From positions 25,346-89,345 of the forward strand of contig CAYYJR010000001.1 in the NCBI GenBank assembly GCA_964472305.1: a stretch of 64,000 nucleotides of DNA, read 5' to 3'. Shown here in pieces: positions 47,882 through 48,388 of the stretch. Numbering within the stretch: the first letter of the stretch is position 1; every line of letters starts with the position of its first letter. This stretch comes from an uncultured bacterium (lineage in GTDB: Bacteria > Armatimonadota > Hebobacteria > CAIYQO01). The position numbers were made by a program, and so were the translations under genes. The notes below the pieces were generated by a model. That model was given only the letters and a program-made list of their open reading frames with translations. It did no database searches and had not been told where the DNA came from.

Positions 47882-48388
47882 ATGAATACGCTACTTCGCA
47901 TCACCTTGATGGTGCTGTGCATCGCGCTGACACTGGGCGCTCTGGCACAGGGTAATCCGCCGCCGCGCAATGACGGCAATCCGCCGCCGCTGCGCAACAA
48001 TGGCCAGCGCCCACCCCGCGACGGCGCCGGTGGAGGCGGGGGGTATACCCTTGAACAGGCCATCCACCAACTGCTCGTGCAAAACAAGGTATCGGCAGTG
48101 TTTCACGGTCACGACCATCTCTTCGTGAAACAGGAGTTGGACGGCATCATCTACCAGGAAGTGCCGCAGCCGGGATGGGTGGGTCGCTTTGATAGCCGAC
48201 GTGCCGTCGAATATGGGTATCGGGACGGAGTCGTGTTGGGCAGTTCCGGCTACCTGCGCCTGACGGTCGCGACGAAGCAGGCCACAGTCGAGTATGTCCG
48301 TGCACTGCTGCCGTCGGCGGAAACCAGCGACCAATGGAACGGAGTCGTGGCGCATAGCTATACTATTTCGCCGTCGTCGGTTCCATGA
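47882..48388 (+). CDS. Small secreted protein homologous to the C-terminal segment of the preceding metallophosphoesterase
   Basis: ATG 47882 with SD AAAGGAG; signal peptide MNTLLRITLMVLCIALTLGALAQG; FHGHDHLFVKQELDGIIYQEVPQPGW and GYLRLTVATKQATVEYVRALLP parallel FQGHDHVFARQVIDGVTYQTLPEPAD and GYVRVTVSPDKATVAYIRQYLP of the upstream gene. Confidence 0.55.
   Translation: MNTLLRITLMVLCIALTLGALAQGNPPPRNDGNPPPLRNNGQRPPRDGAGGGGGYTLEQAIHQLLVQNKVSAVFHGHDHLFVKQELDGIIYQEVPQPGWVGRFDSRRAVEYGYRDGVVLGSSGYLRLTVATKQATVEYVRALLPSAETSDQWNGVVAHSYTISPSSVP

Follow-up and report, generated by a model that had tools for sequence, protein, structure and literature searches.

A 168-codon reading frame beside a metallophosphoesterase gene is probably a lineage-specific deletion chimera of two lost genes

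A short open reading frame of 168 aa that follows the gene for a secreted metallophosphoesterase was traced to two parent genes. The reading to which we give a probability of roughly 0.85 is that it is a lineage-specific chimeric ORF, formed when one deletion took ~2.25 kb out of an ancestral A-X-B gene cassette, with a product that is probably functionless. In the labels of this analysis ORF2 is the 168-aa ORF, MPE-A (A) the adjacent 497-aa enzyme, MPE-B (B) a paralog of that enzyme and X a gene of the LTXXQ type; the window is the whole 64-kb stretch of DNA that was analysed. Alignment with the genes of relatives showed that ORF2 consists of codons 1-60 of X joined to B from codon ~368 to the end. 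As the remnant of two lost genes, it adds one more case to a familiar type of genome decay.

Results

The ORF scan placed ORF2 at 47882..48388 on the forward strand, with its start at the first ATG past an in-frame stop. This start is 23 nt downstream of the end of MPE-A (47858), and the ORF is thus directly downstream of the enzyme, as the original prediction had stated. The ribosome-binding site, signal peptide and Pro/Gly-rich linker that had been attributed to the ORF were all found. The spacer between A and ORF2 (47859..47881, forward strand) carries the Shine-Dalgarno sequence AAAGGAG at 47869-47875, 6 nt ahead of the ATG. The N-terminus of the product has a single basic residue, R6, followed by a 15-residue hydrophobic core (residues 7-21, mean Kyte-Doolittle value 2.56) and a predicted cleavage site of the AxA type, which separates A20-L21-A22 from Q23-G24; the charge of the n-region, the h-region and the AxA motif are together those of a Sec-type signal peptide. 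Residues 23-54 are 81% Pro, Gly, Asn or Arg. In contig L001 the flanks of ORF2 were continuous, with A upstream and an acyl-CoA dehydrogenase gene downstream, and a promoter-like site was seen at 48467-48495, ahead of the next gene.

MPE-A (46365..47858, forward strand), which would have been the first gene of the ancestral A-X-B cassette, was shown by ORF, Pfam and AF2 analysis to be an intact 497-aa secreted two-domain metallophosphoesterase, with an FN3-like N-domain and a catalytic beta-sandwich domain of the purple-acid-phosphatase/PhoD-like type. It matched PF00149 above the cut-off (31.5 bits), and PF16656 and PF09423 weakly. All five phosphoesterase motifs are present (GDSH154, GDDF188, GNHE229, FTHH353, spanning 353-356, and GHDH409) and occupy invariant columns of a 49-sequence alignment. 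With that alignment as input, the AF2 model of MPE-A had a pLDDT of 83.6 and a pTM of 0.85. The top Foldseek matches of the model were plant purple acid phosphatases and phytases (E ~1e-19 to 1e-20), and Bacillus subtilis PhoD (2yeq) was matched with a TM score of 0.61. Sequence identity in these fold matches was 14-17%, and a sequence search of the PDB with MPE-A gave no meaningful match.

Pairwise BLASTP aligned MPE-A residues 394-494 with ORF2 residues 61-164 at 41% identity (106 residues, E 2e-24), well above what chance would give, so that the parallel with the C-terminus of the enzyme, as originally described, was borne out. The further claim that ORF2 is a copy of the C-terminal segment of the adjacent enzyme did not hold; in a search of 5.8e9 proteins, ORF2 residues ~61-164 were 56-74% identical to matches of the MPE-B type. 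A scan of 185,579 GTDB species genomes yielded 80 loci, against which ORF2 and A were compared by tblastn. Loci of the A type were 50-69% identical to the A of the window and 39-49% identical to ORF2, while those of the B type were ~33-47% identical to A and 51-67% identical to ORF2. By BLASTP, ORF2 matched the full-length B of L010 at 67% identity (residues 379-481 of 481, E 9e-48), that of L170 at 66% (368-471 of 478, E 2e-47) and that of L026 at 61% (E 3e-39). Full-length MPE-B is a separate gene of 468-489 aa near A in the relatives, and at the great majority of 92 sites in GTDB genomes the B-type segment forms the end of a stop-to-stop ORF of at least 450 aa. Since ORF2 is closer to B-type than to A-type C-termini, and since B is a separate full-length gene in relatives, its C-terminal 107 residues (codons 62-168 with the stop, 48065..48388, forward strand) were shown, as judged by identity, to come from a full-length paralog, MPE-B, that is missing at the locus in the window.

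The N-terminal part matched gene X, which in the closest relatives lies between A and B and encodes a predicted secreted LTXXQ-type protein of 430-448 aa (~435 aa). In tblastn, ORF2 residues 1-71 and 6-61 matched stretches of L010 and L026, respectively, that lie apart from B and are the starts of ORFs of 448 and 440 aa, the X genes of these loci. Composition-corrected BLASTP against X gave 50% identity over residues 1-71 for L010 (E 8e-16), 53% over residues 6-61 for L026 (E 1e-13) and 66-68% over residues 18-61 for L170 and L090 (E ~2e-13). When the N-terminal 60 aa of ORF2 were used as a tblastn query, X-type N-termini ending in YTLEQA or YSIEQA were recovered from six loci, together with three weaker matches to linkers or signal peptides. 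The X of L026 starts with MKRTQLLILVICGLLAIGVLAQGPPPQRDGNNPPPPRQDGQRPPKGGQGGGAQGYTLEQAMSDRAQL... and the aligned start of ORF2 reads MNTLLRITLMVLCIALTLGALAQGNPPPRNDGNPPPLRNNGQRPPRDGAGGGGGYTLEQAIHQLLV...; the signal peptide of X in L170 is MNTARLLLFLLCSLLAIGALAQG, and L21, A22, Q23 and G24 are invariant across ORF2 and the X N-termini. From these alignments, codons 1-22 of ORF2 (47882..47947, forward strand) correspond to the signal peptide of X, MNTLLRITLMVLCIALTLGALA, which is followed by QG, and codons 23-60 (47948..48061, forward strand) to its linker rich in Pro, Gly, Asn and Arg, which closes with the conserved X motif YTLEQA.

The homology to X extended into the DNA upstream of the reading frame. 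The A stop, spacer, Shine-Dalgarno site and ATG of ORF2 were collinear with the A end, spacer and X start of L026, the ORF2 start region was likewise collinear with the X start of L010, and both relatives carry AAAGGAGAC as their Shine-Dalgarno sequence; the spacer and its ribosome-binding site thus appear to have been inherited from gene X. By alignment, the Shine-Dalgarno site, start codon, signal peptide and Pro/Gly linker of ORF2 are the 5' end of X and are not derived from a phosphoesterase. The X proteins of L026 and L010 scored above the PF07813 cut-off over residues ~311-405 (29-30 bits versus 24.3), and no Pfam match was obtained for X residues ~55-310. No PF07813 match was found in ORF2, from which X residues ~55-440, the bulk of the protein with its LTXXQ region, are missing.

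Because the expression and export signals of X (Shine-Dalgarno site, ATG and signal peptide) are all intact, translation and export of the ORF2 product are predicted. The terminator scan detected no terminator-like site between MPE-A and ORF2, on which the prediction of co-transcription with A is based, and none after ORF2. These signals make it probable that ORF2 remains on one transcript with A and that its product is made and exported.

The genes X, A and B cluster in many loci, in the orders X-A-B, X-B-A, A-X-B and A-B, and A and B are very often adjacent. A was directly followed by X in 11 loci, which include the top five of that scan by A identity (L026, 69%; L090, 66%; L092, 64%; L015, 63%; L104, 62%), and B came next after A-X wherever the sequence continued. 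The order A-X-B was observed in L026, L090, L015, L169, L170 and others. It was also found in both of the nearest A relatives among the 5.8e9 proteins, P0125 (70% identity in A; A, X and B of 490, 430 and 489 aa) and P0123 (67%; 493, 438 and 478 aa); nothing closer than 70% in A was present in the GTDB genomes, the JGI metagenomes or the 5.8e9-protein collection. The original note had proposed checking whether orthologous loci encode one longer fused protein; what stands there in place of ORF2 is a pair of separate genes for longer proteins, X and B. The cassette is widespread, with occurrences in Armatimonadota, Chloroflexota, Verrucomicrobiota, Planctomycetota and Acidobacteriota. In one Anaerolineales MAG, A and B are fused in an ORF of 1024 aa in which B is complete. 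No literature was found that pairs LTXXQ with a metallophosphoesterase or that deals with an X-A-B cassette.

These comparisons bear on a rival derivation of ORF2, as a partial tandem duplicate of the MPE-A C-terminus that acquired a signal peptide. Its adjacency to A and the 41% identity over 106 residues would fit such an origin. ORF2 is nevertheless much nearer to B-type proteins, even those from other phyla, than to any A-type protein, the adjacent enzyme included, its N-terminal 60 residues and upstream spacer are homologous to X, and X and B occupy exactly its position in relatives. The tandem duplication, now highly improbable, was refuted by the identity ranking and the synteny.

The origin from X and B met at a single point. 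The junction codons of ORF2 are CAG GCC ATC CAC CAA; the corresponding X side reads CAG GCC ATG TCC in L090 and CAG GCG ATA TCC in L170, and the B side CCC ATC CAC CAG in L090 and CCG ATC CAC CAA in L170. Codon-level comparison with X and B of relatives identified codon 61 (ATC, Ile; 48062..48064, forward strand) as the deletion junction, and the residue at this position is common to both parents (...EQA-I/M-SDRAQL in X and ...GW.MP-I-HQLLVK in B). In the alignments, ORF2 followed X as far as YTLEQA and B from IHQLLV on. The breakpoint lies within 48059-48065; the peptide across the junction is ...GGYTLEQAIHQLLVQNK.... In relatives, the span from the X codon-61 point to the B point is 2246-2459 nt. 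ORF2 is accordingly made of two segments that match two adjacent, co-oriented genes of relatives; they are joined at one point, and the sequence that separates them in relatives is gone.

No other X or B sequence was found in the 64-kb window, where tblastn of X and B matched only A and ORF2. The possibility that traces of B survive in other frames ahead of the B homology of ORF2 was considered and rejected, on the strength of that tblastn result and of the alternative-frame ORFs over 47791-48128, none of which held MPE-like sequence.

A single deletion of ~2.25 kb would be the parsimonious route from A-X-B to ORF2. The ancestral cassette would have comprised A and B, as paralogous secreted PAP/PhoD-like enzymes, and X, as a secreted LTXXQ-type protein. 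One deletion of ~2.25 kb, from X codon ~61 to B codon ~367, would have removed the sequence between these points, and the reading frame would have been restored by chance. What remained would be the ribosome-binding site, start codon, signal peptide, Pro/Gly linker and YTLEQA motif of X, together with the last 107 residues of B (IHQLLV...GHDH...). Slippage at a microhomology of 4-5 nt, CCAT[C], which is deduced from the sequences of relatives, is a possible cause. With nearest relatives that are 67-70% identical in A, the precise point of breakage, the microhomology and the loss of the sequence in one step are inferred.

An alternative is that the junction is an assembly or binning artefact, that is, a chimeric contig. 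The source is apparently metagenome-assembled and has no close sequenced relatives, which would favour this explanation. Over spans of 917-3548 nt, however, the DNA of ORF2, including the junction, was 100% identical in four contigs, each of them a separate assembly of its own sequencing run; the four runs belong to two accession series, and no polymorphism was seen among the contigs. Moreover, X and B share no repeat able to mislead an assembler, and the flanks in L001 are continuous. Given the four identical independent assemblies, the junction is not an assembly artefact, an explanation that we consider very unlikely.

ORF2 contains one of the five phosphoesterase motifs. The motif scan detected motif V (GHxH) as GHDH at residues 76-79 (48107-48118, forward strand); motif I (D-x-H/GDxH), motif II (GD-x-x-D/GDD, with the bridging Asp), motif III (GNH[D/E]) and motif IV (the conserved His after a beta-strand) are absent. 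This agrees with the original prediction, which had noted the GHDH motif and the lack of the other four. Against PF00149, ORF2 scored 13.2 bits (cut-off 21.5; E 0.12) and covered only profile positions 156-189 of 191. In purple acid phosphatases, GHxH provides two of the seven metal ligands and motifs I-IV provide the other five. As motifs I-IV with five of the seven ligands are missing, ORF2 cannot form the dinuclear centre, and its product, by its motif content, cannot be a phosphoesterase.

In the AF2 model of MPE-A, the segment equivalent to ORF2 residues 61-168 (A residues 394-497) comprises one helix and approximately seven beta-strands, ~30% of the catalytic domain. When ORF2 was modelled by AF2 alone, with no alignment, the pLDDT was 46.8, and the model was informative only for the signal peptide, a helix at residues 3-22 with a pLDDT of ~85. 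Because only ~30% of the beta-sandwich is retained, the product is judged most likely to be unstable and without function.

The B-derived part of ORF2 has not diverged unduly. It keeps 27 of the 28 residues at B columns conserved at 95% or more, and the single deviation is an Ala, derived from X, at the junction. In a relative-rate style test, B minus A identity was +0.016 for the window and -0.06 ± 0.06 for other genome pairs; there was no acceleration of the B-derived part. Its undegraded state would be equally compatible with a recent deletion and with purifying selection. A recent date for the deletion is probable, given that the B-derived part has not diverged in excess and that the chimera occurs in no other sequenced lineage.

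A word-indexed search of 5.8e9 proteins, the 185,579 GTDB genomes and the JGI metagenomes contained no match that covers ORF2 residues 1-40 or both halves. Exhaustive phmmer against 1.84e9 representatives gave 929 matches, all but one of which begin at query residue 41 or later. As far as these databases extend, the X::B join appears unique to ORF2, and no conserved family has its architecture.

Dozens of matches of 105-240 aa, some of them on long contigs, might suggest an ancient and conserved family of free-standing MPE C-terminal domains, with ORF2 as a member. The matches whose sequences and contigs were inspected were found to be gene calls from a conserved internal Met (MPIHQLL.., MRKxYFPNP..) and to lie on short contigs, at contig edges or in B genes that are frameshifted, interrupted by nonsense mutations or 5'-deleted. 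They share no N-terminus or signal peptide, and at most of the 92 GTDB sites the segment belongs to the long B-type ORFs described above. The matches were therefore rejected as a domain family, and membership of ORF2 in one is exceedingly improbable.

The single phmmer exception was P0266 (MFN5185293.1), a 172-aa hypothetical protein from a Planctomycetota MAG that aligns with ORF2 residues 11-164 at 44% identity. P0266 resembles ORF2 in layout: a signal peptide and a Pro/Asn-rich linker precede the last ~125 residues of a B-type MPE, GHDH among them. The junction is different, in that the B part of P0266 begins ~22 residues earlier (...SADGKYEFDKYRPGWEKPIHQLL) and includes RPGWEKP; the phylum is also different, and P0266 is a lone gene beside a sulfatase gene, with no A, X or further B nearby. 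Its 90% cluster consists of one near-identical population on many contigs, and a search with P0266 returned only N-truncated fragments without signal peptides. The N-terminus of P0266 matched X linkers weakly (E 0.02-0.09, with a very small database) and gave no tblastn match in the loci database. Since junction, phylum and context all differ, P0266 is, from these comparisons, an independent event and not an ortholog of ORF2.

Further remnants of B were found elsewhere. P0265 (204 aa) carries an unrelated secreted N-terminus on a B C-terminus, followed downstream by A-gene debris. Independent truncated, frameshifted or nonsense-bearing remnants were identified in L005/L006, L007/L008, L011, L171/L172, L173 and L176; among these are frameshifted (L005/L006), 5'-deleted (L007, L011, L171) and nonsense (L173) copies. 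Loss of B has evidently been frequent across lineages, as far as these remnants indicate.

Discussion

The main competing explanation is that ORF2 is a newly born functional secreted protein, in which a beta-subdomain of B rides on the signal peptide of X and acts, for example, as a partner or regulator of MPE-A, as a dominant-negative form or as a binder of metal or phosphate esters. Several observations are in its favour: the ORF is in frame and has kept the Shine-Dalgarno site, ATG and signal peptide; the B-derived part shows neither excess divergence nor loss of conserved residues; the two breakpoints coincide with structural boundaries, in X where the linker ends and in B where a helix starts; and secreted mini-proteins with the same segment arose independently as P0266 in a planctomycete and P0265 in another lineage. 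However, each of these mini-proteins is limited to one lineage, their junctions and N-termini differ and they form no conserved family. Only two of the seven canonical metal ligands are left in ORF2, and the AF2 confidence for ORF2 alone is low. Many other B remnants have no signal peptide and are plain decay products, P0265 is followed by the debris of an A gene, and a recent neutral deletion accounts equally well for the missing divergence. We regard a functional young gene as unlikely. A broader form of the idea, that the C-terminal ~105-125 residues of B-type enzymes are a semi-autonomous beta-subdomain that has repeatedly been freed as a secreted protein (ORF2, P0266 and P0265), seems to us improbable; if it were true, ORF2 would be a young functional gene made by deletion and fusion, for example a partner or modulator of MPE-A.

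The preferred reading, a deletion chimera, alters what may be said of this ORF. The description of ORF2 as a truncated paralog is right for its C-terminal two thirds, which derive from MPE-B, and wrong for its N-terminal part, which derives from X. The suggestion of an accessory domain gained no support, as no conserved family with this architecture was found. An ORF that would otherwise be listed as hypothetical and secreted, and as a partial match to metallophosphoesterases, has now been traced to two parent genes and one deletion, and annotations should therefore spread it neither as a new domain family nor as an accessory subunit. ORF2 is a clean example, datable in principle, of how a protein fragment can gain the signal peptide of another gene through an in-frame deletion; de novo-like gene birth draws on such material. 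The uncharacterised, widespread X-A-B secreted phosphoesterase cassette may be a worthier subject than ORF2 itself.

Three known systems provide the background for comparison. The first is the PAP/PhoD-type calcineurin-like metallophosphoesterases (PF00149 with PF16656/PF09423; PDB 6gj9, 3zk4, 4dsy and 2yeq). A and B are like these enzymes in their FN3-like N-domain, their dinuclear-metal beta-sandwich and all five motifs, and are themselves distant from the solved structures. In ORF2, by contrast, the final motif, GHxH, and the C-terminal strands survive, whereas the N-domain, motifs I-IV and ~70% of the catalytic domain are gone. The second is the LTXXQ-motif periplasmic proteins (PF07813, Spy/CpxP-type), a family that gene X touches and from whose region of X nothing passed to ORF2, which inherited only the first ~60 residues.

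The third, and closest, is the class of chimeric ORFs and gene remnants left by intergenic deletion in bacteria. As in those cases, the deletion would have taken away the end of one gene, the spacer and the beginning of its downstream neighbour, the promoter-proximal expression signals of the first gene would drive the hybrid frame, and the chimera is confined to one lineage while relatives keep both parents intact. Unlike typical decay chimeras, ORF2 is in frame and is a complete 168-aa ORF with an export signal, and its retained segment has so far not decayed; for this last reason, standard annotation would call it a hypothetical protein and not a pseudogene.

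Conservation of the metallophosphoesterase cassette

A conserved three-gene cassette was identified that comprises genes A and B, which encode paralogous secreted PAP/PhoD-like metallophosphoesterases, and gene X, which encodes a secreted protein of about 435 aa with an LTXXQ-type region. It was present at L026 (1-3245), L090 (5953-10198), L169 (6001-10430), L170 (6001-10259) and L015 (3525-7815), as well as at many other loci, in the order X-A-B, X-B-A, A-X-B or A-B. The MAGs that carried it bore the labels Armatimonadota, Chloroflexota, Verrucomicrobiota, Planctomycetota and Acidobacteriota. 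At 90% identity, the A family by itself fell into over 4300 clusters. At L170 the cassette was preceded by a response-regulator/histidine-kinase pair. No close solved structure was found for the cassette, and our literature search found no paper connecting LTXXQ proteins to metallophosphoesterases.

In an Anaerolineales MAG the A and B units were fused head to tail in a single 1024-aa ORF (L078, 2938-6012), which was preceded by a 585-aa X homolog. At L017, L018, L038, L048, L052, L059 and L061, a stop-to-stop ORF also appeared to cover two metallophosphoesterase units.

The B-type gene was split by a frameshift into overlapping ORFs of 245 aa and 237 aa at both L005 (4298-5714) and L006 (3987-5403). 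Since a JGI contig and an assembly from an independent sequencing run shared exactly this split, the frameshift is real and not a sequencing error. The split gene adjoined RepB-primase and AAA_25 genes, possibly a mobile-element context.

Genes flanking MPE-A and ORF2

Directly upstream of the MPE-A gene, on the reverse strand, were two tandem paralogous genes encoding proteins of 619 aa (42006-43865) and 573 aa (43875-45596), neither of which had a Pfam match. These proteins shared 89% identity, with long 100%-identical stretches broken up by diverged patches. This mosaic pattern suggests recent duplication and/or gene conversion and shows that the region is prone to recombination.

Downstream of ORF2, the mechanical ORF call for the acyl-CoA dehydrogenase gene started at a TTG codon (48467); the true start is likely to be the ATG at 48560 (MLDYGLTEEQ...). 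A sigma-70-like promoter match, TTGACG-17-TATACT (10/12), lay at 48467-48495; the gene is therefore probably driven by a promoter of its own and transcribed separately from A-ORF2. It was followed by two adjacent forward-strand FAD-dependent oxidoreductase-like genes of 449 aa (49928-51277) and 415 aa (51280-52527), which had weak matches to DAO, FAD_binding_3, Lycopene_cycl and Trp_halogenase and may be tandem paralogs.

Look-alikes of ORF2

Two other short proteins ended in a B-type C-terminus. At L176 (5001-6300), the 204-aa P0265 joined an unrelated secreted N-terminus to this C-terminus and was followed by two small ORFs that were remnants of an A-type gene; the region is a B-A pair in decay. 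The neighbouring gene encoded a large TIR/CHAT/AAA protein. P0265 was present in identical form on 13 contigs.

The second, P0266 (NCBI MFN5185293.1), was the product of a lone 172-aa gene adjoining a sulfatase gene in a Planctomycetota MAG (L175, 6001-6519); near-identical copies were carried by many contigs from several sources. Its signal peptide was followed by a Pro/Asn-rich linker and then by ~125 residues from the C-terminus of a B-type metallophosphoesterase. P0266 resembles ORF2 in layout but has a different junction, and is a look-alike that arose independently.
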